Assembly: GCA_902796855.1 (NCBI GenBank)
Contig: CADBQN010000006.1
Span: forward strand, 892 to 64,891
Direction: 5' to 3'
DNA from: an uncultured Bacillota bacterium
GTDB taxonomy: Bacteria > Bacillota > Dehalobacteriia > UBA7702
Length of the DNA: 64,000 nucleotides
The number at the start of each line of letters is the position of its first letter. Positions within the stretch are counted from its first letter, which is position 1. Below, piece after piece: positions 2,908 to 49,854 of the stretch. The notes beneath the pieces are model-generated. The model did no database searches. It was given only the letters and a program-made list of their open reading frames with translations, and was not told the origin of the DNA. The translations under genes and the position numbers were made by a program.

Positions 2908-2957
2908 GCTTCTGCCCTCCCCTTTCGGGGCGGCGCGGAAGCCGTTTTCGTTTCGTT
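2908..2957. terminator. Bidirectional rho-independent terminator between convergent K-channel and GGDEF genes
   Basis: aaaaacggcttc...cccctttcgggg...gaagccgttttcgttt: GC-rich stem with A-run before and T-run after. Confidence 0.6.
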
Positions 2958-2966
2958 CGGATTCGC

Positions 2967-28998: not shown

Positions 28999-30396
28999 AT
29001 GTCAGAAATCAAAGAAGCCTGCGGCGTCATCGGGATCTTTAACACCAGCGGTCTGAACCTGCCGAAAGAAATGTACTACGGCCTTTTCGCCCTGCAGCAC
29101 CGCGGTCAGGAAAGCTGCGGCATGGCCGTGAGCCGCGGCGGGGAAGTGATTTCCCACAAGGATATGGGCCTCGTCAGCGAGGTCTTCAACGACGGCAAAA
29201 TCGCCGAGCTCCAGGGGGAAATCGGCATCGGTCACTGCCGCTACTCCACCACCGGCGACAGTGAGTCCGTCAACGCCCAGCCCCTGACGACGAATTTTGT
29301 CAAAGGCACCCTGGCCATCGCCCACAACGGCAACCTGGCCAACGCCGACGAGATCCGCCGCGGCCTCATGGAGGAACAGGGCGCGATCTTCCACACCAAC
29401 ACCGACTCGGAAATTTTCGCCTATCTCATCGCCAAAAAGGAAGCCGAGACCCATCTGCTGGAAAAAGCCATCCGTCAGGCGACGGAACTGGTCTCCGGCG
29501 CTTACGCCCTCCTCGTGATGAGCCCCCGAAAGCTGGTGGGCATCCGCGATCCCCTCGGTCTCAGACCTCTCTGCCTCGGGGAAAAGAACGGCTCCTACAT
29601 CCTCGCCTCGGAAAGCTGCGCCGTGGAAGCCATCGGCGGCACCTTCATCCGCGACATTGAGCCCGGCGAGATCATCGTCATCGACAAAGACGGCTGTACC
29701 TCCCTGAAAGCCGAAAAGCTCCCGGAAAAACAGCGTCCCTGCATTTTTGAGTATATCTATTTCGCCCGTCCCGACAGTTACATCGACGGTCAGAGCATCT
29801 ACGAGGCGCGCCACCTCGCCGGCCGCATCCTCGCCGAGCGCTACCCCGTGGAAGCCGACATCGTCATGCCCGTCCCGGACAGCGGCATCGACGCCGCCAT
29901 CGGCTACGCCGAAGGCAGCGGCATCCCCTACGGCGTAGGGCTCATCAAGAACCGCTACATCGGCCGGACGTTCATCCAGCCCGACCAGGTGCAGCGGGAG
30001 GAAGCCACCCGCATCAAGCTGAACGTGCTGAAACACACCGTCGTCGGCAAGCGCGTCGTCCTCGTCGACGACAGCATGGTCCGCGGCACCGTCAGCCGGG
30101 GCATCGTCAGCATGCTGAAAAAAGCCGGCGCGAAGGAAGTCCATATGCGCATCAGCGCGCCGCCCTTTACCTGGCCCTGCTTTTTCGGCGTCGACCTGCC
30201 GGAAAAGAAACAGCTGGTGGCCTGCAACCACACCATTGAGGAGATCCGTCAGGATCTCAACGTCGATACCCTCGGCTTCTTCCACGTGGAAGACCTGCCC
30301 CGGATCATCCCCAACTGCGCCTTAAACGGCTACTGCGACGCCTGCTTTACCGGGGATTACCCGGTGCCCGTGCCCTTAAAGGACGAGGACCGCTGA
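28999..30396 (+). CDS. purF: Amidophosphoribosyltransferase
   Basis: N-terminal 'CGVIGI' Ntn nucleophile, 'LQHRGQESCGMA', PRTase motif 'VVLVDDSMVRGT'; C-terminal Cys cluster for Fe-S. Confidence 0.9.
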   Translation: MSEIKEACGVIGIFNTSGLNLPKEMYYGLFALQHRGQESCGMAVSRGGEVISHKDMGLVSEVFNDGKIAELQGEIGIGHCRYSTTGDSESVNAQPLTTNFVKGTLAIAHNGNLANADEIRRGLMEEQGAIFHTNTDSEIFAYLIAKKEAETHLLEKAIRQATELVSGAYALLVMSPRKLVGIRDPLGLRPLCLGEKNGSYILASESCAVEAIGGTFIRDIEPGEIIVIDKDGCTSLKAEKLPEKQRPCIFEYIYFARPDSYIDGQSIYEARHLAGRILAERYPVEADIVMPVPDSGIDAAIGYAEGSGIPYGVGLIKNRYIGRTFIQPDQVQREEATRIKLNVLKHTVVGKRVVLVDDSMVRGTVSRGIVSMLKKAGAKEVHMRISAPPFTWPCFFGVDLPEKKQLVACNHTIEEIRQDLNVDTLGFFHVEDLPRIIPNCALNGYCDACFTGDYPVPVPLKDEDR

Positions 30397-30400
30397 GGCC

Positions 30401-30682
30401 ATGACCGAAAAGAAAGCCGCGCTCCTCGCGCTGCTGGGCCGCCGCCGCGACAAGGAAGCCCTTTGCCTCCTGGAGGAAGACCCCGCCCTCATCGACGAGG
30501 AAGTCATCACCGCCGCGCTGGATCACGGCTGCGTCCGGGTGATCCGCTTTCTGCGGAGCCGCGGGGCCATCACCATGGCGGGCAGAGCGGCCCGGGAGGA
30601 ACGGCGCCTCAGCGAGGCCAACGCGAAGATCGCCGCCTTCGACCGGGAAATGGCCGAGATCGAAAAGCTCTTGGATTTGTAA
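30401..30682 (+). CDS. Small hypothetical protein (coiled-coil C-terminus)
   Basis: 93 aa ORF 5 nt after purF; no recognisable family. Confidence 0.35.
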   Translation: MTEKKAALLALLGRRRDKEALCLLEEDPALIDEEVITAALDHGCVRVIRFLRSRGAITMAGRAAREERRLSEANAKIAAFDREMAEIEKLLDL

Positions 30683-30691
30683 GGAGATCTC

Positions 30692-31192
30692 ATGGAAACA
30701 AAGGACAAGCACAACGCCGCCGTCATCGAAGCGAAAATCCAGCTGACGCCAAAGGATAAGGAACGGGCCATCGACTACAATTACTTTGTCAAGCGCAAGC
30801 TCATTTTGGCCGACGTCGTTTTCTTCCTGCTCCTCGCCGTCGCGCTCATCGCCTTAAAATACACCGGCCTGGCTCCGATCCCCGCCGTTCTCGTCTATTT
30901 ATCCTACGGCGTCATCGTCCTCCTCGTTGTCTTTTTCATGTTCATCAAGATGATGGCCTCCGCCGGCGGCGTCAGCCCGATGCGGTACGTCACCATCAGC
31001 GAGGAAGCGCTGACCACCCGGGTGGCCAACGAGAAAAAGGAATTCACCATTCGCTGGGAGGATTTTCCCCACAAGGCGGCGACGAAGAACTATTTCTTCC
31101 TCTACCCCGACGCCACGCAGTTTTTGATTTTGCCGAAGCGCTGTTTCAGCCCGGAGGAAGTCAAAACGATCACCGGCTATATCAAACGATAA
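30692..31192 (+). CDS. YcxB-like membrane protein
   Basis: 166 aa; two TM helices after ~40 aa; C-terminal 'TIRWEDF...FLYP...FLILPKRCF' resembles YcxB family. Confidence 0.5.
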   Translation: METKDKHNAAVIEAKIQLTPKDKERAIDYNYFVKRKLILADVVFFLLLAVALIALKYTGLAPIPAVLVYLSYGVIVLLVVFFMFIKMMASAGGVSPMRYVTISEEALTTRVANEKKEFTIRWEDFPHKAATKNYFFLYPDATQFLILPKRCFSPEEVKTITGYIKR

Positions 31193-31197
31193 AGAGC

Positions 31198-31232
31198 AAA
31201 ACCACCGGCTGAGCCGGTGGTTTCTGTTTTAT
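31198..31232. terminator. Bidirectional terminator hairpin AAACCACCGGCtgaGCCGGTGGTTT (copy 1 of a repeated element)
   Basis: Perfect 10-bp stem, 3-nt loop, flanked by A-run/T-run between convergent YcxB and SASP genes. Confidence 0.6.
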
Positions 31233-31238
31233 CTCATT

Positions 31239-31448
31239 TTATTCCGTTTTCGCCTTTTCGGCGGCGTCCCGCCTCTTTTTCATCAGCAGGCCGCCGACTC
31301 TCCCCGTCTCTTTGGCGCTGAGACCGGCCCAGCCGACGTCCCGCACTTTATCGAGGAGGCCTAATTCCTCGGCGATTTCCAGTTTCATCCGCTCCATCTC
31401 CGGGGGCGTTTTTTTCATTTTGCTTTTGCGCGATCGGGCGATTGGCAT
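31239..31448 (-). CDS. Alpha/beta-type small acid-soluble spore protein (SASP)
   Basis: 'KLEIAEELGL...GWAGLSAKETGRVGGLLMKK' matches SspA-family core; start ATG 31448 with GGAGGTG RBS (track ORF extended upstream through junk). Confidence 0.7.
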   Translation of the reverse strand: MPIARSRKSKMKKTPPEMERMKLEIAEELGLLDKVRDVGWAGLSAKETGRVGGLLMKKRRDAAEKAKTE

Positions 31449-31519
31449 CGCTTCACCTCCGTTCATCGGCCTGTTTCCTATTTTCCCCGGGAAATTCAAA
31501 ATAATACCGATCAAAAGCA

Positions 31520-31548
31520 TTGACTTTTTTGCCGTCTTTCTATACAAT
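31520..31548 (+). promoter_or_regulatory. Sigma-A promoter for tyrS (TTGACT-17-TACAAT)
   Basis: ttgact tttttgccgtctttcta tacaat, ~75 nt upstream of tyrS ATG. Confidence 0.55.
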
Positions 31549-31626
31549 TATAAAGATAGAAAAAGCACTGAGACGGCGCTGTTTTTGCCCGGCAAACCAT
31601 GAAAAAGCTTTTGAGGTGACAATCGT

Positions 31627-32850
31627 ATGAGTGTTTTTGACACGTTATCCGAACGCGGCTACATCGAGCAATGTACCCACGAAGATGAAATCCGTGAGCT
31701 TCTCGAAAAGGAGAAAGTCTCGTTCTATATCGGCTTTGACCCCACCGCCGACAGTCTCCACGTCGGCCATTTCATCCAGATCATCGTCATGATGCATATG
31801 CAGCGGGCGGGGCACCGTCCCATCGCCCTGCTGGGCGGCGGCACCGGCATGATCGGCGACCCCTCGGGCCGCAGCGACCTTCGGCAGATGATGACGGTGG
31901 AGACCATCGACCACAACGTCGCCTGCTTCCGTCAGCAGATGGGGCGCTTCCTCGATTTTGGCGAAGGCAAAGCCCTCGTCGTCAACAACGCCGATTGGCT
32001 CCGCGACCTGAAATACGTCGATTTCCTCAGGGAAGTGGGGGCGATGTTCTCGGTAAACCGCATGCTCACCGCCGACTGCTACAAGAGCCGCTTTGAAAAG
32101 GGGCTGACCTTCCTTGAGTTCAACTACATGCTGATGCAGAGCTACGACTTTTTGGAGCTCTACCGCAAATATAACTGCAAGCTCCAGCTCGGCGGCAATG
32201 ACCAATGGAGCAACATTTTAAGCGGCGTCGACCTTGTCCGCCGTCTCGACCGCGGCCAGGCTTTGGGCATGACCTTTAAGCTGCTCACCACCTCCGAAGG
32301 GAAGAAGATGGGCAAGACCGCCAAAGGCGCCCTCTGGATCGACGAAACGAAGACGACGCCCTATGAGTTCTACCACTACTGGCGCAACGTCGACGACGCC
32401 GACGTGGAAAACTGCCTGGCGCTTTTGACCTTCCTTCCCATGGACGAAGTGCGCAAGCTCGGCGGTTACAAAGACAGCAAGATCAACGAGGCCAAGGAAG
32501 TGCTGGCCTTTGAGGTGACAAAACTCGTCCACGGCGAGGAAAAAGCCATCAAAGCCAGAGACGCCGAACGCGCCCTCTTCGCCAAAGGCGGCGAAGGCGG
32601 CGACGTCCCCACCCTCGACATGAAGGCCGCCGATTTCAGCGACGGCGTCAATATCCTCGATCTCTATCTCCAAGCCGGCCTCATCCCCTCCAAGGGCGAA
32701 GGCCGCCGCTTGATGAAGCAGGGCGGCATCAAGATCAAAGGTAAGGGCGAAAGCGATTTTAACCGCCTCATCACCTTAGATGACTTTGAAGACGGTCAGC
32801 TCCTGCTGCAAAAGGGCAAAAAGACCTTTAAGCGGATACGGATCGACTGA
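31627..32850 (+). CDS. tyrS: Tyrosine--tRNA ligase
   Basis: Class I HIGH motif 'ADSLHVGHF', KMSKS-equivalent 'KKMGKT', C-terminal S4 domain. Confidence 0.92.
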
Positions 32851-32852
32851 CC

Positions 32853-33134
32853 ATGGAAGATTACGTAAGAGACATCGAAGACCGCCTGGACGACCTGATG
32901 AGCGGCGACGACGCCCCCCGGGACGTCATCTCCCTTGCCCAGGAGCTGCGGATGGAATATCCCGAAGAGTTCAAGCGGTTCACGTCAAATATGGCAAGAA
33001 AATACGAGCTCAGCGTCTGCGGCGCCCACCATGTCCACATCAACGGGCTGCTGACGATTCTGGATCGCTGGGCCGACGAAGGGAAAGTGCGCAAAGTCAT
33101 TGAAAAGGGCTCCATCCTCTGGCAGAAGAACTGA
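32853..33134 (+). CDS. Small hypothetical protein
   Basis: 93 aa ORF starting 3 nt after tyrS stop; acidic. Confidence 0.35.
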   Translation: MEDYVRDIEDRLDDLMSGDDAPRDVISLAQELRMEYPEEFKRFTSNMARKYELSVCGAHHVHINGLLTILDRWADEGKVRKVIEKGSILWQKN

Positions 33135-33167
33135 GGGAGCGAAACGAGGGGAAAGCGAGGCGCGGCC

Positions 33168-33761
33168 ATGAAAAGAGCTCACGGCGGCTGTTTCCGGCGG
33201 GTGCTGGATATCCTGATCGTGTCAGGCGTCATTTCGGCGCTGCTCCTCGGCTATATGGGGCTGAAAAAGGCCGACGAGGCCGAAGCGAGCCGCACCCCCG
33301 TGGCGGAGCTGGGCGCCGTTTACGCCGGCGAGACCGCCGCTTCCTGGGACGCGCTCCTGCTTGATACAGTGATGAAGGAATTCATCGGCGACAGCGCTGT
33401 TCTGAACCGTCTGCGCTCCCTTTTGGGCGACGACTCCGCCGCGGCGCTGATCACCGAATCCTATTATCTCCCCGCCGACGGCGACGTTTCCACGGCCATC
33501 GGCCGCCGCGTTCTCGTCCACCGGCTGAAAAAGGCCTATTCCGAACAGGAGCTTTTCGCCATCTACTGCGGCATCATGGGCTACGACGCCGCCGACGAAG
33601 AGAGTCTCCTCTCCCTCATCGAGGGGATCGGCCTCAGCGGCGCCGCTCCGGAAGACCTGACCGCCAGCGACGTCCTGCGGGACATCCTGAACTATCTGAA
33701 CGAACAAGACCTGCTCTCCGACGACTACACGGAGAAGCTGAACGCCTATTTTGCCCCCTGA
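33168..33761 (+). CDS. Hypothetical membrane-anchored protein
   Basis: N-terminal TM (ILIVSGVISALLLGYMGL); high-GC codon usage like flanks. Confidence 0.4.
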   Translation: MKRAHGGCFRRVLDILIVSGVISALLLGYMGLKKADEAEASRTPVAELGAVYAGETAASWDALLLDTVMKEFIGDSAVLNRLRSLLGDDSAAALITESYYLPADGDVSTAIGRRVLVHRLKKAYSEQELFAIYCGIMGYDAADEESLLSLIEGIGLSGAAPEDLTASDVLRDILNYLNEQDLLSDDYTEKLNAYFAP

Positions 33762-33952
33762 GGGCGAACGGTGTGAAAAAAAGCATATCCCACCCCGGAG
33801 GCCGCGCGCGGCGGGGCCCGGGCGGTACCTCATGCGAACGGCAGATCTCTTGACGCCGATCTGATTCGGAGAAACCCCAATTTCGTCGAGAGATAGCATG
33901 AGGACTACCGTCCGGATTGCGCCGCGCGGGCACCCGCGTTGAAGATAAAGAA

Positions 33953-33986
33953 ATCCACTCAGCCGAAAAGCCGAGTGGATTTTTTG
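33953..33986. terminator. Hairpin plus T-tract at left edge of low-GC island
   Basis: atccactc-agccgaaaagcc-gagtggat followed by tttttt. Confidence 0.5.
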
Positions 33987-34042
33987 ACTTTAAAGAACTG
34001 CCCCTTTGAAACTAACTCTTTATTCCGGGACGCGTCCCCTTT

Positions 34043-34265
34043 GGCGTGCCGTCGGAACCGCCTTTGGTGGTTTCATTGGTTTTTGGTGTGCTATCGGAAC
34101 CGTCCTCATCGGTTTCATCGGTTTTCGGCGTGCCAGCGGAACCGTCTTTGGTGGTTTCATTGGTTTTTGGCGTGCCATCGGAACCGTCTCCATTGGTTTC
34201 ATCGGTTTTTGGCGTGCCATCGGGATCGTCCCTGTTGGTTTGCTGTTGGTTTTCCCCGTTGGTTT
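34043..34265. repeat. Tandem array of five 42-bp repeats (GGCGTGCCATCGGAACCGTCTTTGGTGGTTTCATTGGTTTTT consensus), preceded by a GGGACGCGTCCC palindrome
   Basis: Units at 34043, 34085, 34127, 34169, 34211, last one 44 bp and degenerating; open in 4 of 6 frames; minus frame would read a KPMKP-rich 14-aa repeat from a TTG start. Confidence 0.8.
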
Positions 34266-34319
34266 AAGGGAATGTATCAAATAGTTAGCAAAAAGAGCTC
34301 TGAGGGTTCCACAAATAGG

Positions 34320-35477
34320 CTATATACTTTTCTTCCATTCTTTGTATAATTCGGCACATTTGGCAACACAAAAAGCTGAAAACAATAAACCACCGCCATT
34401 TCGTTTGTTATCTTTTTCAATCTGAACTTTGTACTGAGCTTTGATATCATTATCAGAGAAATCATCAAAATGTATTTTGAGATATTTGTCAAAATCATCC
34501 TTTTCCTGTGCGTCTTTAAAAATGAGAAGCTGATTGAAATTATTCTCACGACTGGAAATATCAAGTGACCCATGAGTAAAAAGCCGCAATAGTTTCCCCT
34601 CTATGGAATCCAACAAATAGCATGAATACCAAAAATCGTCTCTACCGGCTACAGCACAGGTTTTCGCTTTGGGAAGGTATTTTCGAAACCCATCAAAACA
34701 CCAAAGTTCCGTTTCATAAATAATTGTGTTATGAAACATGATGTTTAGTGGAGCAAGATGCATCTCCGGATCTGTATAAAATGCTGCGGGTGCCAACCAA
34801 TCAGGTTTCATTTTCCCGAATTGTTTTATTTGATACTCCGGAAAATCGGTATGGTAAGAGTAATTCTTATTACCCCAATCCATTTCCCAATTATCAATAT
34901 CATCCAATAATATCATTAACCGTTCTTTAGGAGGTCGATCAATACCGAAACGCTTTCGCCATAAATACTCTACATCATTCATATCAGCGTTTCCATCGAT
35001 TGCAGTGTTATTATCAACCACTCTCGTATAGATTCGATACGGAAGAACTGTTTTTCCAATCTTTTTACCGTCCGAAGATGTAATATTCCCATCTTGATAC
35101 GATTTTTCCAAATAATACGGAACATCAGATGTATTTTTTACAATAAGCACATCGATTTCATGATTTTCTATGGTAATTGTCCTCATTTCAATACGGGGTC
35201 TAACGCTTCCGGCATAGTGAATATTCCTTAAAATATTTACAACACGCTGTTGATCTCGCCTATTTGCATCGTTTTCCACGCCGAGGATTTCAAAGGTCTG
35301 ATCTCCAATACCAAAAATAATATATGCATCACGATCTGCCCGCGAATTTGCCATACAGGTTATATCATGAACAAGATCACCTTTATCATGATGATGCTCT
35401 CTTTTGAAATCCCACCAATCATCTTCACGTTGAGACTGTATCAGTTCTTCAATTACGGATGTTAAATCTTTTTCCAC
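34320..35477 (-). CDS. Schlafen/AlbA_2 (PF04326) domain protein with uncharacterised C-terminal domain, likely defence-associated
   Basis: N-terminus 'EELIQSQREDDWWDFKREHHHDKGDLVHDITCMANSRADRDAYIIFGIGD' fits AlbA_2 core; AT-rich codon usage; last gene of island operon. Confidence 0.55.
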   Translation of the reverse strand: MEKDLTSVIEELIQSQREDDWWDFKREHHHDKGDLVHDITCMANSRADRDAYIIFGIGDQTFEILGVENDANRRDQQRVVNILRNIHYAGSVRPRIEMRTITIENHEIDVLIVKNTSDVPYYLEKSYQDGNITSSDGKKIGKTVLPYRIYTRVVDNNTAIDGNADMNDVEYLWRKRFGIDRPPKERLMILLDDIDNWEMDWGNKNYSYHTDFPEYQIKQFGKMKPDWLAPAAFYTDPEMHLAPLNIMFHNTIIYETELWCFDGFRKYLPKAKTCAVAGRDDFWYSCYLLDSIEGKLLRLFTHGSLDISSRENNFNQLLIFKDAQEKDDFDKYLKIHFDDFSDNDIKAQYKVQIEKDNKRNGGGLLFSAFCVAKCAELYKEWKKSI

Positions 35478-35536
35478 AAAGATACCTCCTGACTATTATA
35501 AACAGGGATATTTCCAAACAAAGCCGTCCCTTTTAA

Positions 35537-38437
35537 TCAAAAGCTAAGGATATTGTTTAAAATAACAAGGTTAAAAATAAACTGTTTTTCCCCTTCTTTG
35601 AACTTCACATTAATATAACCCTTGTCAGTATCTTTTTTTGTAATCGTACCTTCGCCGAATTTTTTATGAGTTACCTTCATTCCGATTTTCATATCATCAA
35701 AAATTACTTCGGCATGATTTGTTTCGGCTTCGCTTGCTTTTTCAGTCTTTTCAGCAGTACCCTTTTTGCTGACCGTCTTATGTTGGCTTCGTATATCGGA
35801 ATCAGCTTCCACTGTTTTTTCTAAAGGCTTCGTCTCTTCTTCACGAAAAACCGGTTCAGACAGATCCATATCATTTTCCATTGTTGCCTGCTGATTGTAA
35901 AAAAGCTGCTGGTATTCTTCTTTTTTGATAACCGTGTCCCAACCGCCGACATCTTTTCCTTCGTGTTTATCTATACCTGTGTAAGAAAGACTGCTGTCCT
36001 CATACCGCTTAAATTTAAAAATAGCGTCATTCATCAAGCTCGCGTTGAACACTCCCAAAGCGCAGAGCAACTCAAAATCCTTTACGTCAAGACCGGTAAC
36101 TTTTTTGAAAAGTCCGGGTTCAAGCTGGGTAATTACATCTTTCAGGGTGCGCTCACGGTAATCCGTCAGATACATGAAAACCGGAATACGCGTGGCAAAT
36201 TTGATGAGCTTTTCCTGAATCTGCTTCCGCATGGATTTATATTCTTTTTCCTCTGCCGTAAGCTCTTTCTTTTCTTTCTTGGAAAGCTTATCTTCTCCCT
36301 CTTTCTTGGCTTTTTTAACCTTCTCCGATTTATTGATAATGGTCTCAATATCGCTGTTTAAGGAGCGGAACCCCTCAATATGCATCAGGGCGTTCAGCGC
36401 TTCTTCACTTGCCAGCAACCGGGAAAGCGTTTCATTATCTACATTCACCAGCAACGCGGACTCCCAGCGGCGCGCAAGCAAAGTAGCGGAAGTACCGGCA
36501 AGAGCAATATCAAGAACATCCTGCGCGGAAATCTGTTTCATGGTTGAACCGTCATAGGCCAGCACAGGCAGGAAGCTTATAAACTCCGCGACTTTCTTTT
36601 CAGGATTATCTTCATTGACGTTCAGGCGGCAGGAATAATCGGAAATCTGACGAAGCGCACGGTCAAGAGCAAAATCAAAAACATAGCATTCCTGCTTCAT
36701 TATCTGTTCTTTTCCCGCGTCGTCCTTTATTGTCCATGGCGACTGCACACGAAAAGCCGTTTGAAAATACGTTTCGGGGCTTTTCAGATTCCGCAGCATA
36801 AACACGCCTGTCCACGGTTTTATCGTGACGCCCGTTGTGAGTTTGCCGCAGGAAAGGGTAATTGTTTTTGTGGCAAGCGGATTATCCATCGCGTTTTGAA
36901 CAGGGCGCAAAGCATCAAGACCGATACCAGCCTGAGAACCGGCGCAGACAACAACTTTATAATCTCTGAAATAGTTATCCTGCATCAGAAGATTATTCAT
37001 TGCATAGCAGGCCGCGACATTCGGCAGAAACCAAAGCGTATGATTCAGCACCGCCAAAAGCCGGGCATCAGAAAAGGGCATCGGCGGTCGTTTATCCTGT
37101 CCCAGTTTCAAATCATCCACACTGGAAGGAAGATATGACCCGCGGATAAGCTGAAGCCATTTATAGACCTCGTTTTCATAAACGAATTTAGCATTTTCAA
37201 CGGTATCACCTTCCTGCACTTTCGCGGAGAAAAAAACATTCAGGTCAAATTCGTTAAATTCCCCGTTCAGTGCAATCTGGCGAATACTGTCCGGAATTTG
37301 ATAGGTGAGCATCACCATTCGAGGCAGAGCGAGATAGGGATTATCCGAACCTTTCCAGTTCTCTTTTGCTCTTTGCTCGTCTGAATAAGTCCAGTTATAA
37401 ATCTGATCTTCTATAAATTCACCGCTGTTAAGGGCGCGGAACGGAGTTCCGGACAGGAATAAATAATACTGCGTGGTAATGGGCAAAAATGTTTCGTTAT
37501 AGGCGTTATCCGCCTCATCCTTTTTATATTTTTCCTGGTCAAAGTCGGCCTCTGCCTCTTCATCGGGATTTTCAAAAAGCTTTTTTGCGTTTTCTCTCCA
37601 CGCTCCGAAATGGTACTCGTCAAAAACAACCAAATCCCAGTTGGCCGAGTGAATAAACTCATTCTTGGACTTGATGCCGCCGTTTTCATTCGTGCCCAAC
37701 AGGTCTTGAAACGAACCAAAGACAACAATCGGTCTGCTTTTATCCGCGTTGTCAAAGGCCTGATCGATATTGATATTCTGACCGTGCGCGTCTTTGTTTG
37801 ACACAAACTGCCATCCCTCAAAATCGGTATGGCCCGCCAAATCCTCCGCCCACGCGGATTCCACCGCCGGTTTAAAGGTAAGAACAAGAACTCTCTTTAA
37901 CCCCATCTTTTTTGCCAGCTCATAGGTGGCAAAGGTCTTGCCGAAACGCATTTTGCAGTTCCAGAGGAATTTCGGCGCGCGGGTGGGCTCGGCCTCCTCA
38001 GCCTGTTTAAAATAGCTCATCGCACGCTGAACGGCCTCTGCCTGTTCCGGACGCATTTGAAAAGACAGGGTTCTGTTTTCCGTGTTTTCCGTATTGTCCC
38101 GCACCGCAACAATCGCGGCTTTTACCGCGTCTAAATCACATTGGTACCATTCGTTTCGATCCGCTCCGGCGTTCAGCTGACGATACCCGCGCCGACGAAG
38201 GGCCGCATGAATGTCATGGTCAGTAAAACAGCTCCCATCAGGGCGCACAGCGGGTTCGGTCAGCACGATTTTATACGGTACAGCGGAAGTGTGCATCTGT
38301 TCTGCAACACGGGTCTCAGCGTCACGTTCGGTATATCCGATTTTCAGATAGCCCTTGTGGGACGCAACGCCGATAAGCTCATACGCATATATGGTTGGCG
38401 TTACTTCTGGACGAGGGGCGAAAAAATCAATAGCCAT
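35537..38437 (-). CDS. Fusion protein: N-terminal T5orf172 (GIY-YIG-superfamily) domain + SNF2-like SF2 helicase/ATPase + coiled-coil + C-terminal Tudor-like domain; putative restriction/effector subunit
   Basis: 'TIYAYELIGVASHKGYLKIGYTERDAETRVAEQ' = T5orf172; 'KMRFGKTFATYELA' (motif I), 'WDLVVFDEYHFGA' (motif II), 'LFLSGTPFRA' (SNF2 motif III); C-terminus 'MKVTHKKFGEGTITKK...INVKFKEGEKQF' like the UvrD/PcrA C-terminal Tudor. Confidence 0.65.
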   Translation of the reverse strand: MAIDFFAPRPEVTPTIYAYELIGVASHKGYLKIGYTERDAETRVAEQMHTSAVPYKIVLTEPAVRPDGSCFTDHDIHAALRRRGYRQLNAGADRNEWYQCDLDAVKAAIVAVRDNTENTENRTLSFQMRPEQAEAVQRAMSYFKQAEEAEPTRAPKFLWNCKMRFGKTFATYELAKKMGLKRVLVLTFKPAVESAWAEDLAGHTDFEGWQFVSNKDAHGQNINIDQAFDNADKSRPIVVFGSFQDLLGTNENGGIKSKNEFIHSANWDLVVFDEYHFGAWRENAKKLFENPDEEAEADFDQEKYKKDEADNAYNETFLPITTQYYLFLSGTPFRALNSGEFIEDQIYNWTYSDEQRAKENWKGSDNPYLALPRMVMLTYQIPDSIRQIALNGEFNEFDLNVFFSAKVQEGDTVENAKFVYENEVYKWLQLIRGSYLPSSVDDLKLGQDKRPPMPFSDARLLAVLNHTLWFLPNVAACYAMNNLLMQDNYFRDYKVVVCAGSQAGIGLDALRPVQNAMDNPLATKTITLSCGKLTTGVTIKPWTGVFMLRNLKSPETYFQTAFRVQSPWTIKDDAGKEQIMKQECYVFDFALDRALRQISDYSCRLNVNEDNPEKKVAEFISFLPVLAYDGSTMKQISAQDVLDIALAGTSATLLARRWESALLVNVDNETLSRLLASEEALNALMHIEGFRSLNSDIETIINKSEKVKKAKKEGEDKLSKKEKKELTAEEKEYKSMRKQIQEKLIKFATRIPVFMYLTDYRERTLKDVITQLEPGLFKKVTGLDVKDFELLCALGVFNASLMNDAIFKFKRYEDSSLSYTGIDKHEGKDVGGWDTVIKKEEYQQLFYNQQATMENDMDLSEPVFREEETKPLEKTVEADSDIRSQHKTVSKKGTAEKTEKASEAETNHAEVIFDDMKIGMKVTHKKFGEGTITKKDTDKGYINVKFKEGEKQFIFNLVILNNILSF

Positions 38438-38441
38438 ATTA

Positions 38442-40025
38442 TCACTCCAACTCCATCTTTGGTATTGACTCTTCTATAACTTTGACTTCGTGTTCATTCA
38501 ACCCATATTTTTCGTATAGTTTTTCATCCGTCCATCGAATAGAGAAGTCTTGAATTGGGACAAACTCATAAGCTTTTGGAGGCATGTCTTGTGTTGAGGT
38601 TTTTATAGCAACTAAAAACCTCAGAAATTTGGTTGATATATACGCCATTAAATTATCGGCTTCTTCTTTCGATAATCTTCTATCTGGCGGTAAAGCAACA
38701 ACATAAGTATTAGAACTACACGAATTCGGTGCACTAATTTTTGGCTTTCCAACTATGCTTCCACTTGGATTTCCTGAACGAGGAATTATTACTTTATATT
38801 TGTTAACTGCCTCTCTGTTCTTTGGGATGCTTTTTTCAGCGACATAACACATTCCGCCATGAATATACACTTTTACTTGTCTAGCGTTAGTAGGCTTTGA
38901 ACTCATAGCAATAAAGCTTTTCCCGTCCGCTGTCTGAATTAAACCGTCTTCTTTATTCCCGTTCCAGTCAACTTTTGTATGGAACCCGAAATATCTACCA
39001 GCATTTAGCCATTCAGATAATGAGGGTTCGTTAATCTTTTGAACCTTTTTCAAAACTGATATCTGGGCATCATTCCTTATAAAGGTTTCCATATCTTTTT
39101 CAAGCAATGGACGTTCAGTCATGCTGACATAATCTCCATCATGTGAAAAAACCTGACAAAGCCCTCTATTATCCCTATCCCATAGGAAATAACACACTCC
39201 ACCTTTTATCTCCACTCCAGGAAAGCAATCTGAGGCTGTAGGATAGTCGTGGATGACCCTTATTCTATCATCATGAAGCATGTCACTTCTAAATGAATCC
39301 AGCCCTCGTCCACCCATGAACCATCGAGCAGGGATAATCATGCAAAGATACTTTGGGGATAGTTTTTGCGCCTGTTGTACAAACTTTTGATATATCGGCA
39401 AAGCGCTTGCAGCATTACCTCCATCACTAAGATGATATGGAGGATTACTAATAATTACATCAAATTTCATATTAAATGCCTCCTGTGGCTTTAACATATG
39501 AATGAACTCATATGCATGAGTTTCCATAGTTTCGCCTCTATCCTCTTCTCCAAGAACAGTCTTATTGGAAATACCGCAATATATACAACGCCTATCTTTC
39601 CAATTATGTTGGATTTTTTTATACCTTATGTTTCCCTGAGCTGTGTCAAATCTCGTAACAGAGTATTCACTATTGGGGTACTTCGAACAGTAAATGCTTC
39701 TTCTAGATAGCAAGCTAGTCAACTCAGTAATAGCAATGCCATAGATCTGGTTTTGAAAGATATGGTCTATTCTTTCTTGCAAATCAGGGAATTGCCATTC
39801 TAATCCTTTTATCAAGCGTTTTGCTATCTCCCGAAGAAATACGCCACTTTTACAAGCAGGGTCAAGAAACTTCGTATCAGGATTTTCAAACAATTCCTGC
39901 GGGAGCATATCCAACATTGCATTGGCTATATCCGGCGGGGTAAAAACCTCATCATTTGAAAGATTCGCTAAACAAGTCAGAACATCAGGGTTATATATAT
40001 TTCCAAAAAGACCATTATCAGCCAT
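38442..40025 (-). CDS. Gamma-class N6-adenine DNA methyltransferase (Eco57I/TaqI-like) with C-terminal putative TRD
   Basis: Motif X 'DEVFTPPDIANAMLDML', motif I 'FLDPACKSGVFL', motif IV 'DVIISNPPYHLSD'. Confidence 0.8.
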   Translation of the reverse strand: MADNGLFGNIYNPDVLTCLANLSNDEVFTPPDIANAMLDMLPQELFENPDTKFLDPACKSGVFLREIAKRLIKGLEWQFPDLQERIDHIFQNQIYGIAITELTSLLSRRSIYCSKYPNSEYSVTRFDTAQGNIRYKKIQHNWKDRRCIYCGISNKTVLGEEDRGETMETHAYEFIHMLKPQEAFNMKFDVIISNPPYHLSDGGNAASALPIYQKFVQQAQKLSPKYLCMIIPARWFMGGRGLDSFRSDMLHDDRIRVIHDYPTASDCFPGVEIKGGVCYFLWDRDNRGLCQVFSHDGDYVSMTERPLLEKDMETFIRNDAQISVLKKVQKINEPSLSEWLNAGRYFGFHTKVDWNGNKEDGLIQTADGKSFIAMSSKPTNARQVKVYIHGGMCYVAEKSIPKNREAVNKYKVIIPRSGNPSGSIVGKPKISAPNSCSSNTYVVALPPDRRLSKEEADNLMAYISTKFLRFLVAIKTSTQDMPPKAYEFVPIQDFSIRWTDEKLYEKYGLNEHEVKVIEESIPKMELE

Positions 40026-40731
40026 TTTCTGTAATCCTCCTATAATGGATTAACGGATATTCGTTTACAGGTTTCGGAATAAGTTTCTTTGTAATGGGAT
40101 CAAATGTCCAATTATTATAATTCAGCGCAACATCGTCAAATAAATTTTGTTCTTCTGCGTAGTTACTCTTATTCGAATTTTCTTTCAAAAGAACATCCAA
40201 GCGGAAATCACGCCGTTTTATTCTCGCGTCGTTAAAAGGAAACGTCCATTCAGCGAAAATAATGGGGGTTTCTGTGTCCTGCTGGTTCTCATCAACACAC
40301 ATCAGGCTCAGGGCGTTTCCGCAAACGATATTCTTTTGCAGGATATACCGCGCGGCGGTTCTGGCCTCATCGTTGGCTTCCTTTTTGCAAACCGCCGTAT
40401 ATTCCGCGTCCCACAGGGCAAACAGATTTTCGCGGCATATTTCAGCGTTATCCGCTAAAATATCTACACCGTAAAGGCTCGTCAGCGCAAGAATGGCGTT
40501 TCGCTCATAATCATAGGCGCTTTTTTTGTATTTTGATTTTACCACCGCCAATTTACGGGAAAGAATCTCCGCAAGGAAAACGCCCTCGCCTACGGCAGGC
40601 TCTAAAAATCTTGAATCAATCCGCAGACATTCATCCGCTACCAAATCACACATGGCCTTTACTTCACGCTCAGCGGTAAATACTTCCCCGTGGTCAGATA
40701 TACGCTGTTTTGTTTTTACTTGCTTTGCCAA
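40018..40731 (-). CDS. N6-adenine MTase-like protein with motifs X and I but degenerate motif IV (NPPY -> GNAL); likely catalytically inactive paralog or partner
   Basis: 'HGEVFTAEREVKAMCDLV' (X), 'FLEPAVGEGVFL' (I), 'IVCGNALSL' in place of NPPY; 8-nt overlap with downstream MTase. Confidence 0.55.
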   Translation of the reverse strand: MAKQVKTKQRISDHGEVFTAEREVKAMCDLVADECLRIDSRFLEPAVGEGVFLAEILSRKLAVVKSKYKKSAYDYERNAILALTSLYGVDILADNAEICRENLFALWDAEYTAVCKKEANDEARTAARYILQKNIVCGNALSLMCVDENQQDTETPIIFAEWTFPFNDARIKRRDFRLDVLLKENSNKSNYAEEQNLFDDVALNYNNWTFDPITKKLIPKPVNEYPLIHYRRITENG

Positions 40732-40762
40732 AAGTATAAACCCCCATTTCGGTCAAAAAGGA

Positions 40763-41224
40763 TTATTTCATCACAACCGGAACCGTTTCCAGTCCGAGGC
40801 GTTTTGCCGCGCAGTATCGCAGGTATTCCCCTTCTAAAAGGTACTTTGAACCGTGACGCGAAACGACGAGCGGTTTTCCCAAATCGCCGTGGATTTTATA
40901 GTATGTCACCATCCGTTCAATCGCCGCTTCCGCCGGCTTTTCATAATTGGCGTTCACCCTTATGCTCTCAAGCGCGATAAACCATTTGCTGAATGACGCT
41001 TTTCTGTTTTTGACCGGTTTTCGCGTCTGAACAGGTTGAGACGTATCCTCTTTATAATAATCGCAGTGGCCCGCGCCATAGCAGCGGTCGGAATGTTTTA
41101 CGCAATAGGCGTTTTCTTTGCGATAAAAAATACATTTACTCCGGTGGCGGCGGTCGTCGTCTTCGCCCCGTGTGAATTTTTCCACATGCCACGGCGTACC
41201 GGTCAAACGATTCAGCCCGGTCAT
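40763..41224 (-). CDS. Zn-ribbon + ParB/Sulfiredoxin-like nuclease (ParBc) domain protein
   Basis: 'CIFYRKENAYCVKHSDRCYGAGHCDYY' Cys/His cluster; C-terminus 'LESIRVNANYEKP...LLEGEYLRYCAAKRLGLETVPVVM' matches ParB N-terminal domain; start ATG 41224 with AAAGAGGTG RBS. Confidence 0.6.
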   Translation of the reverse strand: MTGLNRLTGTPWHVEKFTRGEDDDRRHRSKCIFYRKENAYCVKHSDRCYGAGHCDYYKEDTSQPVQTRKPVKNRKASFSKWFIALESIRVNANYEKPAEAAIERMVTYYKIHGDLGKPLVVSRHGSKYLLEGEYLRYCAAKRLGLETVPVVMK

Positions 41225-41368
41225 CGCGAACACCTCTTTTCTCAAAAAACAAAACAATATAACAAAAAATATTCCAATTATATTAAATTCCACATATTTC
41301 CTCTTTTTCCTTCTTCCCCTCCCCTCACCCCTATTCTACCACCGTCCCGGTGACATTTTCGGGACATG

Positions 41369-41390
41369 AAAAAACCGCCGGAGCGGCGGT
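41369..41390 (-). terminator. Terminator of GNAT gene at right edge of island
   Basis: minus-strand RNA accgccgcuccggcggu followed by UUUUUUC. Confidence 0.5.
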
Positions 41391-41443
41391 CTTTGACGCG
41401 GGGCGGCGCGTTCCGTTGGGGGAAACCGCGCGGCCCGGGGCTT

Positions 41444-42157
41444 TTAAACGTTTTGATATGCGTAAATCAGTTTGTCATAGGTCTTTTCTCCGACGGTGAG
41501 GCCGTCCTTTTCGGTGCGGATATGGCGCATCCCGGCTTTTTCAAGGACTTTTCGGGAGGCCTCGTTCTCCGCGGCGCACCAGGCGGTGACCGTGGCAATG
41601 CCCTCGTTTTCCGTCAGGTATTCCAGCACTTTCTGCAGCGCCGCCGTCGCGTAACCGCGGCCCTGCCATGATCGTTTGACGCTGAAACCGACCTCGATTT
41701 GGTCGTCCGCGTAATCATAGGCGCCGATCGTCCCCATCAGGACGCCGTCCACGTCCATCGCCCAGCCGTAAAAGCGCTCGTCGTCGTAGCTTTTTATGAA
41801 CCGGCGCACGGTCTCTTTCGCCTTCTCCGGCGTGGCGTAGGGGTTCCAGCCGGAGTATCGCGACGCTTCGGGGTCTGTTCCAAAGCTTTGAAAGAGCGTC
41901 TCCGCGTCCTCGGGGGTGTATCTCCGCAGGGTCAGCCGCTCCGTCCGAAGCTCCGCCGTGCCGTGGACCTCGATTTCCTCCATGGCGGCGATCTGAGAAT
42001 TGTACAGGAGAAAATTCCCGATGATCACGCCGTCCTCGTCGCCGCCGTATTCATGCGTCAAAAACGCCTGGCTGCAGTGGGACGCGAAACCGATGAAGGT
42101 CTCGCCCCAAATGTCCGTTGCCCGGACGTGTTTTTGGTCGAATTTCGTGAGATCCAT
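41444..42157 (-). CDS. GNAT (RimJ/RimL-like) N-acetyltransferase with extra N-terminal ~60 aa (start uncertain; alternative ATG near 41992)
   Basis: 'ERLTLRRYTPEDAETLF' RimL-type N-terminus; 'QGRGYATAALQKVLEYL' acetyl-CoA site. Confidence 0.7.
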   Translation of the reverse strand: MDLTKFDQKHVRATDIWGETFIGFASHCSQAFLTHEYGGDEDGVIIGNFLLYNSQIAAMEEIEVHGTAELRTERLTLRRYTPEDAETLFQSFGTDPEASRYSGWNPYATPEKAKETVRRFIKSYDDERFYGWAMDVDGVLMGTIGAYDYADDQIEVGFSVKRSWQGRGYATAALQKVLEYLTENEGIATVTAWCAAENEASRKVLEKAGMRHIRTEKDGLTVGEKTYDKLIYAYQNV

Positions 42158-42257
42158 TTTTCACTCCTTTTTCATAAAACGGCGCGCCGCGCCATAAAAC
42201 GCCTTTGCTTTCACACTGCCATTATACACGAAACAGCGGGAGAAACCAAGCGCAAAT

Positions 42258-42282
42258 CAAAACCACCGGCCGAACCGGTGGT
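42258..42282. terminator. Terminator hairpin AAACCACCGGCcgaaCCGGTGGTTT (copy 2 of repeated element)
   Basis: Near-identical to hairpin at 31198-31232. Confidence 0.55.
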
Positions 42283-42288
42283 TTGATT

Positions 42289-45200
42289 TCACTTGATGAG
42301 GTTTTCCAGCGTCTCAAAGAGGAGCTCCGGTTCCACGGGCTTGCTCAGGTGCGCGTCGAGGCCCGCCTGCATGCTCCGCTGAACGTCCTCGTCAAAGGCG
42401 TTGGCGGTCAGGGCGATGATCGGGACGGTCTTCGCGTCGGCGCGGTCCATTTCCCGGATCGTCCGCGTCGCCTCGAGGCCGTCCATTTCCGGCATTCGCA
42501 TATCCATGAGGATGGCGTCGTAGTAGCCTTCCTCGTGTCCGCCGAACATCTCCACGGCGACTCTGCCGTTTTCGGCGTGCTCCACTTCCATCTCCCGCAT
42601 GGAAAGGACCATCATCATGATCTCGGCGTTGACCATGACGTCTTCCGCCAGCAGGACGCGGCGGCCCTTGAGATCGACGGTCTCCTCCACCAGCTTCGCG
42701 TTTTTCTTTTTAAAGGCCTCGCGGAACTCATCCATCACCGTCCCGGCGAAGAGGGGTTTTGCAACAAAAGTATCCACGCCGGCCTTACGGGCCTCTTCTT
42801 CAACCTCATCCCAGTTGTAGGAAGTCAGAATGATAATTGGCGTATGATTCCCAACGATAGCACGGATCTGCCTTGTCGTCTCCACACCATCCATTTCCGG
42901 CATCTTCCAGTCCACGAGAATCAAGTTGTAATCCTTCCGGCGGGTATGACGCATTTTGACCATTTCAATGGCGTCCTTGCCGGACAACACCATCTCACAA
43001 CTGATCCCAACCTGCTCAAGAATGATCTGGGCGTGTTCGCAGGCGATGCGGTCGTCGTCGACGACCAGCACGCTCATTTCGTGGGGGCGAATCTCAATGT
43101 CATCGTTGTCAGAAGCAATGTGACTCGACTGCCCCAGTGTAATGGTGACGGTAAACGTGGTTCCAACACCTTTTTCACTTTCCGCTTCAATATGGCCGTT
43201 CATCAGTTCTACAATATTTTTTGTGATGGGCATGCCCAGACCGGTGCTGCCATATTTATTGGTCGTAGACGAAGCCTCCTGTGAAAACACTTCGAACAGC
43301 TTAGGCAGATATTCCTTGCTCATGCCGATACCGGTATCGCTGATAGTACAGCGCAGCGTAGCATTGCCGTCCATCCTTGCCACATCTTTAATGATAAAGG
43401 TCACGGTACCATCTTCGGGTGTAAACTTGACAGCATTGCCCAGAATATTGATCATCACCTGGCGCAGTTTCATGTCGTCGCCGATATAATATTCGTCAAT
43501 CTGTCCCTCTGTCCGGCACTCGTAATGAATCCCTTTATCCCGGCACTGTCCGCTGATGATGGTGTTGACCTGTTCCAGCGTCTTGGAGAAGGAAAATTCC
43601 TCGTTCTTGATGGTCATCCGCCCGGACTCGATGCGGCTCATATCGAGGATGTCGTTGATGATGCCAAGCAGATGATGGGCCGAGGTGCCGATCTTTTCCA
43701 GATATTCCCGGGTCTGGGCGGAAATTTCCGGGTCGCTCAGCGCGATATTGTCCAGACCGATGATGGCGTTCATCGGCGTGCGGATCTCGTGGCTCATGTT
43801 GGAGAGAAAAGCGGTTTTCGCTTTGTTAGCCGCTTCCGCCTCTGCCAGTGCGTCCTGCAGTACCTGACTCTGCGTCATGGACTTGCGCGTTTCCAAATCC
43901 ACGTCTACGAAGCAGGCGCCAACGATATGCACCAGATGATCTATGCGGTCTTCCGGACGGCGCACCCCGGCGAAACGCACTTCCTCCCATGAATCCCGTC
44001 CATGCCGATGCACCATGTACCGATAGGCGATAACCCGTTGCTCCAGCAACAGGGCTTTTACGTTTTCCGGCTGAATGAAGCGCAGGAATTCCTCACGGTA
44101 TTCTTCCTTAATATTCGTGTTCGCATAGGCGGTCACGGCGGTAATATACCGGAAATGATCCCCAACACGGAAGCCGTTCTCAACGTCGCTGTGCGCCTGA
44201 TAGCACACTCCCTCGTCGTGATCCAGATCCAGATAATAGACGCTCCAATAGTCGGAAGCCAGCGCCGTAATCATGCGGGTCTGTTCTTCCTGCTGTTGCT
44301 TCTGCGCGAGCAGTTCTTCTTGTAACTGAATACGCTGTTCCATTTCTTCCCGCTTGATGCGGTTCTCGGCCTCGGCAGTTTCCCTTTCCAGTATAAGCTT
44401 CGAGTTTCTGCGGCTTTGCCGAACGATAAAAGTAAACAGCCCTAACATAACAGCGATGGTCAGCACCGACTGAATAACGCTCCTCCGAACGATACCAGCG
44501 GAAATGGTGCTGATGTTCTCACTGATCACGCTTTCCCGGATCAGATAGGTCAGACGCCAGTCCGTGCCTTTCACAGGAACATAGCTCAGCGTTTCCCGAA
44601 TACCATTGTAGGTGAAGCAGACCTCGCCGTTTTTTCCCGCGGTAAAATCCGACACAAATCCTTCATAGGAATAGCCCGGCTCAAATTCGGCGCTGCGCAT
44701 GGCTTCGAGCAGATTATCTTCCACGGCAAGACCGCCCAAGACCGTGTTGCTCAGGGCGATGCCGTTGCTGGTATAGATATTGCAGAAGGTCGCACCGTCT
44801 TCTTGGGCGTCCATGGAAACACCGGCAAGCATTTCATCCATGTCGATCTGCATGAAGCAGGCAACCAGTTCCGTATCGGCAAACTGAATGTGAGTGGGAA
44901 CGGCAATGATGACTTTTTTATCGGCACTCTCTAAATTCTCTACCAAAATTTCCGGTCCCTGCAGCATATGATAATCAAATTGGTACTGATTGATCTCTTC
45001 CTGCGGCCCGGTGGAGGTGTAAATCAAATCGTCGGCACCGACAAAAGCAAACCGCTCCAGATTAAAAAGTCGCTTGATCCGTACTTGATACGCCTGGAGA
45101 TGTGCGTTATCGCTCAGATCTTCTTCCGTCATCAGGTCCAAAGCCGTTTCGATGACATTGACTTTTTCCCGCATATTCCCCGCTACGACCTGCTCACGGC

Positions 45201-45366
45201 GACCCGCGAGCTCATCCAGATAGAGCAGGCTGACCGAACGAACGGCGGATTCAGTATCGCTTTTCGCACTGCGCCCCGTCCATATTGTACCAAGAAATAT
45301 GATAAGTAAAAGAATAAGACCCCCTATAATCGAGACAAGCGTTATCCTTTTTTTTCGATTTTCCAT
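42289..45366 (-). CDS. Hybrid sensor histidine kinase/response regulator (extracytoplasmic Cache-like sensor, HisKA, HATPase_c, two REC domains)
   Basis: '[18 protein letters not shown]' H-box; N/G1/G2 boxes; REC1 '[12 protein letters not shown]...[13 protein letters not shown]'; REC2 '[10 protein letters not shown]...[12 protein letters not shown]'; start ATG 45366. Confidence 0.85.
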
Positions 45367-45662
45367 TCGACAACACCCCTTTGACCCGATTCGCCGCGCG
45401 GACTCTTCTGCACCGCGGTTCGTTTCTGAAAATGAATTATGTTTTTTTATTCTTTGTTTTCGGTGTCCGCGCCATTCGCGCGAAACGTTCAAAGAACGGT
45501 ATCTGACCGTACACACATATTATACACAAAGGCGCAGGAAAATCCAATAGAAATTTGGAAAAAAAGGACAAAAGCCCATAAAAAAGCTCCCCCTTTCGGG
45601 GAAGCCTTTCCGCGGCTCCGCCGCTGACCGGGAAACCGAGGACCGGCGGACGGCGCCGCCGA

Positions 45663-46544
45663 TCAAAAGGCCCGGGTGATCATCTCACGATAGCGCCGCA
45701 GCTCCGTTTCGTCGCTTTCCTCCGTGAGCTTTTTAATAGAGGCAAGCAGTTCCTCTTTGGCCTCGGGAATCCTGCACTTCACATGGAACAGGTTGGAAGC
45801 GTGTTCGTTCATGAAGATCGTGTCGTTGGTCAGACAGCGCACAAACTCATGGAGCTCCTCCAGCTTTTCCTTTTCGGTCGATTCCGTATACAGCCCTTTT
45901 TCCACCGCCCGATACAGCGGCGTCCCGGGTACGACCGTCAGCATGGAAGTATTGATCATCGTGGGATGCAGGCCTTCGTAGAGCGTTGCCGTAAGGCGGG
46001 CGTTGGCGGGGCCGCCGCCATGGCCGCCGGCGCCGTTCAGGAAATTGACGATAAACGGAAGCCCGGAGGCCTCGATCTTTTCCAGGACTTCTCTGGCTTG
46101 GGAAGCGGTATAGCCCTTGTTGATCCGCTTTAACACCGTATCGTCTCCGGACTCTACGCCGATATAGGGATCGGCGTAGCCCACCGCCGCCAAGTTCCGA
46201 AGCTGATCTTCCGTTTTATCATAAAAGTTATCAATACGGGCGTAACCGCCGATGCTCTCCACGGAGGGGACATATTTGCGCAGCAGCTCCGCCGTTTTCA
46301 TCAACACATCGTAATCCGCCGCGAAACCGTCCGCGCCCTGCAGAAAAATCCTCTTCGGCGCGCCGAAATATTCGGGAATTTCCCTGATGTCCGCCTCGAT
46401 TTCCGCCAGCGTTGATTTTTTAAACTTCTGATTTTTAAAGTAGGTGCAGAACAGGCAATGGTTATGGGAACATCCCTCTGTCGTCTGTAAATACCCGTCC
46501 GCCGTCTCATAGTGCGGCCGGTTGATCCCTCCCGCGAAACGCAT
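45663..46544 (-). CDS. Radical SAM protein with non-canonical Cx4Cx2C cluster (paralog A, 293 aa)
   Basis: 'TTEGCSHNHCLFCTYF'; 'GVESGDD' glycine-rich SAM motif; no SPASM or B12 domain. Confidence 0.7.
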   Translation of the reverse strand: MRFAGGINRPHYETADGYLQTTEGCSHNHCLFCTYFKNQKFKKSTLAEIEADIREIPEYFGAPKRIFLQGADGFAADYDVLMKTAELLRKYVPSVESIGGYARIDNFYDKTEDQLRNLAAVGYADPYIGVESGDDTVLKRINKGYTASQAREVLEKIEASGLPFIVNFLNGAGGHGGGPANARLTATLYEGLHPTMINTSMLTVVPGTPLYRAVEKGLYTESTEKEKLEELHEFVRCLTNDTIFMNEHASNLFHVKCRIPEAKEELLASIKKLTEESDETELRRYREMITRAF

Positions 46545-49814: not shown

Positions 49815-49849
49815 AAAAAAGGGACGGTCCTTTCGGAACCGTCCCTTTT
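49815..49849. terminator. Bidirectional terminator between flavin reductase and hybrid kinase 2
   Basis: aaaaaagggacggtcctttcggaaccgtcccttttg. Confidence 0.6.
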
Positions 49850-49854
49850 GACGT

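Follow-up and report, generated by a model that had tools for sequence, protein, structure and literature searches.

Head-to-tail arrays of variant units of 40-100 bp, situated between or after the genes of operons, are well known in bacteria as intergenic VNTRs or minisatellites. Slippage or unequal recombination makes their copy number differ among close strains. An example is given by the MIRU-VNTR loci of Mycobacterium tuberculosis, MIRUs themselves being dispersed over many loci per genome. Of integrative islands it is said that attachment sites and direct-repeat scars are found at the 3′ ends of tRNA, tmRNA or small RNA genes (Williams 2002, cited in PMC10250203). Intergenic VNTRs and minisatellites, as a kind of object, are also treated in PMC12817950. 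Core defence hot spots, with conserved flanks and no mobile-element hallmarks, have been described in P. aeruginosa (cDHS1; PMC10250203) and in E. coli (PMC10121019); for those of P. aeruginosa, exchange of the cargo by homologous recombination in the flanks is proposed in the discussion of the former paper (PMC10250203).

The array considered here resembles each of these in part. It lies in a stretch of 64,000 nucleotides from an uncultured Bacillota lineage (the window), and is read here, with a probability of roughly 0.6, as a non-coding, copy-number-variable, lineage-private minisatellite at the left junction of a defence-island hot spot, without a dedicated function.

The array and its setting

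The array (34043-34252; Table 1) is made up of five 42-bp units, contiguous and head-to-tail, with a super-period of 84 bp. Tandem Repeats Finder reports it both with a period of 42 bp (4.8 copies over 34040-34241, 80% matches, 0 indels) and with a period of 84 bp (2.4 copies over 34043-34241, 86% matches). A second, separate repeat search gave the identical unit register, and nhmmer with a five-unit profile recovers each of the window's own units (E = 3.5e-12 to 7e-8, matching by construction). The arrangement is that of a VNTR or minisatellite, for which head-to-tail units of 10-100 bp are characteristic. The likeness of unit 1 to unit 3, and of unit 2 to unit 4, suggests that the last amplification was the duplication of a two-unit block. 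In the degenerate fifth unit, the 3′ half (CCCTGTTGGTTT) is the part retained in the one-unit alleles B and C described below. The perfect 12-bp palindrome that adjoins the array resembles the unit core, CGGAACCGTCCC, and so would act as a partial “unit 0”; alone, it is predicted to form no stable hairpin (z = 0.1).

Table 1. Features at and around the array. Positions are those of the window unless another contig is named.
Feature	Position	Strand	Basis or remark
Tyrosyl-tRNA synthetase gene	left of array	+	
93-aa ORF and 197-aa ORF	left of array	+	no Pfam match
Long imperfect hairpin, ~140 nt, candidate small RNA	33791-33940	+	RNA fold
Strong terminator hairpin with T6 run	33951-33988		-19.3 kcal/mol, z = -6.6 on +
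Spacer common to alleles A, B and C	33989-34026		far more diverged than core flank
Perfect 12-bp palindrome, GGGACGCGTCCC	34027-34038		sequence
Unit 1	34043-34084		Tandem Repeats Finder, frame display, nhmmer profile
Unit 2	34085-34126		Tandem Repeats Finder, frame display, nhmmer profile
Unit 3	34127-34168		nearest to unit 1, giving the 84-bp super-period
Unit 4	34169-34210		nearest to unit 2
Unit 5, degenerate	34211-34252		nhmmer E = 7e-8
11-bp mini-repeat, GTTGGTTT..., after array	34232-~34267		Tandem Repeats Finder, period 11 at 34232-34252
Schlafen/AlbA_2 protein, PDC-S50; last gene of island operon	34320-35477	-	Pfam PF04326 5e-13; PADLOC 1.9e-110
T5orf172 helicase/restriction enzyme, 966 aa, type IIG-like region	within 35537-40025	-	Pfam/PADLOC
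Eco57I-type methyltransferase, 527 aa	within 35537-40025	-	Pfam/PADLOC
237-aa ORF	island	-	MmeI_Mtase below Pfam cut-off; PADLOC MTase_II 6e-8
176-aa ORF	island	-	sub-threshold ParB_N match
GNAT acetyltransferase gene	41444-42157	-	
GNAT gene with terminator, then hybrid histidine kinase	beyond island genes		
Hot spot, window	33989-42289		
Hot spot, L001	10906-20594		
Hot spot, L013	1316-2366		
Hot spot, L014	2078-2139		

The five-copy repeat and its palindrome, from which an earlier note on this DNA started, are real: the two repeat searches agree on the units, and an ENA contig from a different sample (L012) carries window positions 33940-34330 exactly, so that the array is not an assembly artefact. 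Its placement at a GC transition, also pointed out in that note, is borne out by a fall in GC from 0.608 (33001-34000) to 0.408 (34001-35000).

Several other kinds of repetitive locus were considered and rejected. CRISPR arrays have unique spacers between their repeats, and the units here are contiguous; a CRISPR array, a shufflon and phase-variable mod repeats were all set aside on anatomy. A DGR template/variable repeat pair was rejected as well, there being no reverse transcriptase and the differences not being adenine-specific.

The units are 10-25% diverged among themselves, versus ~1% between strains, which implies that the array either predates the strain split or evolves unusually fast. 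Despite this divergence the 42-bp length is exact in every unit, without indels, which hints at some constraint on the array. Two further properties, a period that is a multiple of 3 and a length (42 bp) equal to four helical turns, are likewise counted against a neutral reading.

Leftward of the array are genes and structured elements of the host. The region 33765-33995 has a predicted fold of -112 kcal/mol (z = -7.9); the long hairpin within it is 149/150 identical in the related contig L001 (flank identity 98.6-98.8%), and Rfam returned nothing for it, either at the gathering threshold or with E <= 10. It lies outside the repeat and is given here as context. The terminator that follows, which a pattern scan flags as terminator-like on the minus strand too, is the last host element conserved base-for-base.

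Rightward, the island genes are on the minus strand throughout and have 36-47% GC. PDC-S50, to which the last of them is matched, is listed by PADLOC as a candidate defence family. Pfam matches among the island ORFs were AlbA_2, T5orf172, Eco57I and GNAT, with MmeI_Mtase and ParB_N below the cut-off; to judge by its domain matches, 35537-40025 is a split type IIG-like restriction-modification system, carried as island cargo. In L003, a contig 99.9% identical, a foreign element (2913-3455) splits the Eco57I-type methyltransferase gene at window position 39862; it has GGGGTGTCG repeats, then small phage-like ORFs. The GNAT acetyltransferase has one relative at >71% identity, a single ENA-only 90%-identity cluster, whose representative is 100% identical and lies on a contig of the window-type island. 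The GNAT gene may be part of the variable cargo, not of the conserved flank. The hybrid histidine-kinase genes (42282-43840 versus 50735-51406 / 49854-50322) are paralogues, with 74-79% DNA identity over >1.5 kb, and flank a radical-SAM/nitroreductase cluster.

Alleles of the locus and the movement of its cargo

Contigs with other alleles were obtained through look-ups of flank proteins, the 93-aa protein giving the informative ones; several window proteins had no record in exact-protein look-ups. The strain flanks are 98.5-99.7% identical to the window, and between them four alleles were found. Allele A (the window and L012) has the palindrome and five units, next to an island with PDC-S50 and the split type IIG restriction-modification genes. 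Allele B (L001, from JGI, and L002, from Logan) reads GGAACGCGTCCC at the palindrome and has one unit, next to a type III restriction-modification island (REase_III, 5e-291; N6_N4 methyltransferase; DUF4391; SNF2). Allele C (L014) has a palindrome of the window type and one unit, next to a third, unrelated sequence. Allele D (L013 and L016) has a HEPN-like (RNHFAH) gene, ending 6 nt past the T-run of the terminator; homology to the window stops at 33991, right after that terminator. On the right flank, window and JGI contig are collinear at least over 43079-64000. With varied cargos between conserved flanks, the locus is a defence-island hot spot. Relative to the long hairpin and the terminator, allele D cargo begins directly after them; alleles A-C insert the spacer, palindrome and unit first.

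Copy number is therefore variable among close strains: five in the window and L012, one in L001, L002 and L014, and none in L013 and L016. The earlier note had proposed two comparisons with relatives, of copy number and of alleles lacking the window's island; in the first the repeat is not invariant (0, 1 or 5 copies), and in the second allele D carries neither palindrome nor unit. The single unit of allele C consists, exactly, of bases 1-18 of unit 1 joined to bases 19-31 of unit 5, as would result if part of the array were lost by an unequal crossover or by slippage. The alleles with a single unit have the appearance of contraction products. In the window allele, replication slippage or unequal crossing-over would have amplified one unit to five, duplicating a block of 84 bp.

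The two allele A contigs are informative on the movement of the cargo. Between L012 and the window there are 17 SNPs over 29415-33484 and none over 33485-35177, where ~7 would be expected (P ~8e-4). This SNP-free tract implies one recent history for island, array and the final 280 bp of the 197-aa gene, and the pattern places the crossover within that flanking gene, as in homologous recombination and not site-specific integration. It shows that island and array have moved by homologous recombination, and the strains probably exchange the cargo of this hot spot in the same way, through their conserved flanks.

A remnant attachment or recombination site, the first suggestion of the earlier note, does not agree with this footprint, nor with the gene content: no recombinase or integrase was found in 34320-42289 by Pfam, or in as much of the allele B island as is visible. 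A copy of the junction at the far end of the island, direct or inverted, was also not found, either by the repeat search or by sensitive blastn of 33930-34320 against 34320-43000; the best match there (30 nt, 77% identity) is inside a terminator and at chance level. The window has no tRNA or tmRNA that could be an integration target. An exact match to CGGAACCGTCCC at 49834 was considered as a flanking repeat and rejected, being a terminator arm. The intrinsic terminator it belongs to (49820-49847) has a 3′ arm and T-run, CGGAACCGTCCCTTTTG, nearly equal to the core of the one-unit alleles; the unit may be derived from a terminator half.

Two other suggestions fare differently. An iteron array is not supported: neither the island ORFs nor the scanned flank genes (32853-33761, 41444-46544) showed a replication initiator (Rep-family) domain, and distant blastn of the region against PLSDB plasmids gave no DNA match (homologues of PDC-S50 in PLSDB are all <35% identical). 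Of the proposed contingency-type variable repeat, the variability stands and the contingency does not, because the array, downstream of convergent genes on both strands and thus downstream of the operon, is outside promoter and coding regions, and a 42-bp unit cannot shift the frame.

The junction itself is less easily dealt with. Alleles A, B and C diverge no more than ~5 bp past ...CCCTGTTGGTTT (about window 34252-34257), so that strain comparison upholds the assignment of the array to an island boundary, originally made from one sequence: three unrelated cargos are joined there, and a ~90-bp module, composed of spacer, palindrome and one 42-bp unit, forms the left end of each. In 33989-34042 (spacer, palindrome and a 4-bp gap), identity between the window and L001 is 49/54, versus 285/289 in the 289 bp leftward of 33989; from the end of the terminator on, the mismatches are at 33988, 33992, 33995, 34014, 34018 and 34029. 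For the divergence of this segment between alleles A and B, P is 0.0006 if the flank rate is taken as the reference, and 0.02 with an assumed neutral rate of ~3%. The segment thus seems either to be carried along with the cargo or to change faster.

The allele B island also has, 290 bp into it, a further unit-like copy, diverged from the others (nhmmer E = 7e-4), at L001 11146-11204. It is formed by an inverted pair, GGGACGGTTCC-N16-GGAACCGTCCC, which comes just past the stop codon of the type III res gene and overlaps the start of a called 60-aa ORF.

It is conceivable, if unlikely, that spacer, palindrome and unit make up a cis-acting junction module (a recombinase-binding or docking site, or a Chi-like stimulator) marking the left end of a family of integrase-less defence cassettes, with the array a by-product of repeated exchange. 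The shared left end of the three cargos would follow from this, as would its divergence (~9% between A and B, versus ~1.2% in the flank, as if it were cargo-borne), and the second unit-like copy with its inverted pair, like the perfect palindrome next to the array, would also be in keeping with it. The units contain TGGTGG and AGCGG, which we take to resemble known Chi cores. However, the absence of a recombinase or transposase gene from 34320-42289 and from the visible allele B island tells against such a module, as does that of a copy at the right end; allele D is joined elsewhere, directly after the terminator; the L012 tract puts the crossover in the flanking gene, not in the array; and the motif was not found in the other collections scanned. 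A more specific version, in which the palindrome and a CGGAACCGTC-type unit are the end module of integrase-less cassettes, recognised by a factor of the host or the cassette or Chi-like, and direct the swaps while the array records or enhances exchanges, seems more doubtful still. A common junction for three cargos and a second unit in allele B are, all the same, things that a purely neutral repeat does not predict; it is the first of these, together with the exact length of units far more diverged than the strains, that gives a cis-acting junction role its small probability.

Coding potential and RNA structure

Five of the six reading frames run through the array without a stop. The earlier note was right that stop-free frames exist, although it counted four. 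They are no sign of coding: the plus strand has just 19 A in 210 bases, making stops rare on both strands. Two minus-strand frames deserve mention. One (KPMKPPKTVPMARQ) gives 86 aa (34020-34280), is Lys/Pro-rich (KPMK), and has a TTG start at 34280, with no Shine-Dalgarno sequence before it, just as had been described. The other is acidic, TPKT(N/D)ET..GSDG, and has no start codon; in alleles A, B and C alike its stop coincides with the junction, and allele B has a 1-bp indel that shifts its end, along with other frames running past 34018.

That the array codes, either for the Lys/Pro-rich protein or as the 3′ remnant of an acidic-tail gene cut by insertion of the island, is quite unlikely. 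Such a role would account for a period of exactly 14 codons without indels between units, and for both minus frames being open. Alleles A, B and C share the stop codon of the KPMK frame, and this frame is in phase with the PDC-S50 gene, from which a single TAG divides it; in allele B, the first residues of the called 60-aa gene are a similar peptide, KPIKLKGTVP, for which the second unit-like copy codes. But open frames are explained by the A-poor composition, and PDC-S50 is complete without any extension (profile positions 1-382 of 387). One frame is startless and the other depends on a TTG without a Shine-Dalgarno sequence, and the acidic frame is closed at the junction in all three alleles. 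Database searches point the same way: the TPKT peptide has no homologue among 5.8 billion proteins, and a full HMMER search of 1.84 billion representatives with the KPMK ORF gave only repeat-versus-repeat, low-complexity matches, mostly eukaryote-like and judged spurious. Pfam had no matches for the five open frames or for the 60-aa ORF of allele B. Finally, the variable sites of units 1-4 (n = 13) fall 4/4/5 over the codon phases, an even spread with no sign of purifying selection on a protein. The idea of a small repetitive peptide gene, put forward in the earlier note, is hence not sustained, and the array appears to be outside any protein-coding gene, as expected for a non-coding VNTR, though this placement is not absolute.

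As regards transcription, the array has the host terminator on one side and, on the other, the last island gene, whose stop codon is at 34320, so that any transcript would most likely be the 3′ untranslated tail of the island operon. The array would be transcribed, at most, as such a tail of the minus-strand PDC-S50/type IIG operon, ending at the bidirectional hairpin.

Whether it might act there as RNA depends on the structures that can be predicted for it. In each of units 1-4 there is an invariant GGAACC/GGTTTC stem, with a 9-nt loop that is the most variable part of the unit, and on the plus strand a U-run starts 5 nt after the stem. The unit hairpins have predicted energies of -7 to -12.5 kcal/mol (z = -0.4 to -2.7), that of unit 1 being the strongest (-12.5 kcal/mol, z = -2.7); real terminators in the window have -19 and -22 kcal/mol. 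A pattern scan of 33500-35500 found five terminator-like sites (2.3 +/- 1.7 expected), four of them being units. Taken whole, the array has no significant structure (z = -1.6 on the plus strand, +0.1 on the minus strand), and Rfam gave nothing for the region at the gathering threshold or at E <= 10.

The concentration of terminator-like sites in the units, the combination of a constant stem with a variable loop, and G-U pairs that favour the plus-strand hairpin, strongest in unit 1, could be taken to mean that the array works as RNA: as plus-strand back-up terminators, shielding the convergent island operon from antisense read-through, or as a 3′-UTR element of the minus-strand operon. Against this, the hairpins of the remaining units have little stability (-7 to -9 kcal/mol, z = -0.4 to -1.8), five bases separate stem from U-run, the z-score of the whole array is -1.6, the U-run is absent from the one-unit alleles, and the stems never vary, so that they give no covariation evidence. 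Action as RNA is distinctly improbable on this balance; from the folding models, a role for the array as a back-up terminator or insulator is possible, but weakly supported. A minisatellite without a dedicated function remains the preferred reading.

Distribution and comparison with known systems

Exact-pattern scans for the unit gave no matches in one genome per species across 185,579 species, in 241 million metagenome records or in IMG/VR viral contigs; the palindrome module had none in viral contigs, and a flank protein had none in the genome contig collection. In the window and related contigs, the unit profile matches only this locus, so that looking for the unit elsewhere, as the earlier note had recommended, yielded no other site. 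A single locus and empty scans indicate a lineage-private unit, and not a dispersed family of the MIRU type.

The array alone adds little, beyond a strain-typing marker and a further example of an intergenic bacterial minisatellite. Its hot-spot context is more useful than the repeat: a compact site where, in a Bacillota lineage without cultured members, at least four cargos come directly after a terminator, and where sequence comparison gives direct evidence that island and array move by homologous recombination in the flanks. If the junction module were a functional exchange site, it would bear on how integrase-less defence hot spots arise, but the evidence does not favour this.

Compared with attachment sites, the locus is similar in that a structured element, which may code for an RNA, ends in a terminator directly before the variable region, and in having a short sequence common to several cargos; it is unlike them in having no integrase and no far-end copy, and in units that are contiguous rather than split by island remnants. 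Like the MIRU-VNTR loci, the array is intergenic and head-to-tail, with variant units and a strain-variable copy number; unlike MIRUs, it occupies one locus only in the available sequence, at the junction of a swappable anti-phage defence island. The closest likeness in genomic context is to cDHS1 and the E. coli hot spots, with which it shares conserved flanks, low-GC, strain-variable cargo, the lack of an integrase, and exchange compatible with flank recombination. What was a proposal for P. aeruginosa (PMC10250203) is recorded directly here, in the SNP tract of L012; and this hot spot differs from those of the P. aeruginosa and E. coli papers in carrying a tandem repeat at its junction, and in being found, with four alleles, in an uncultured Bacillota MAG lineage.
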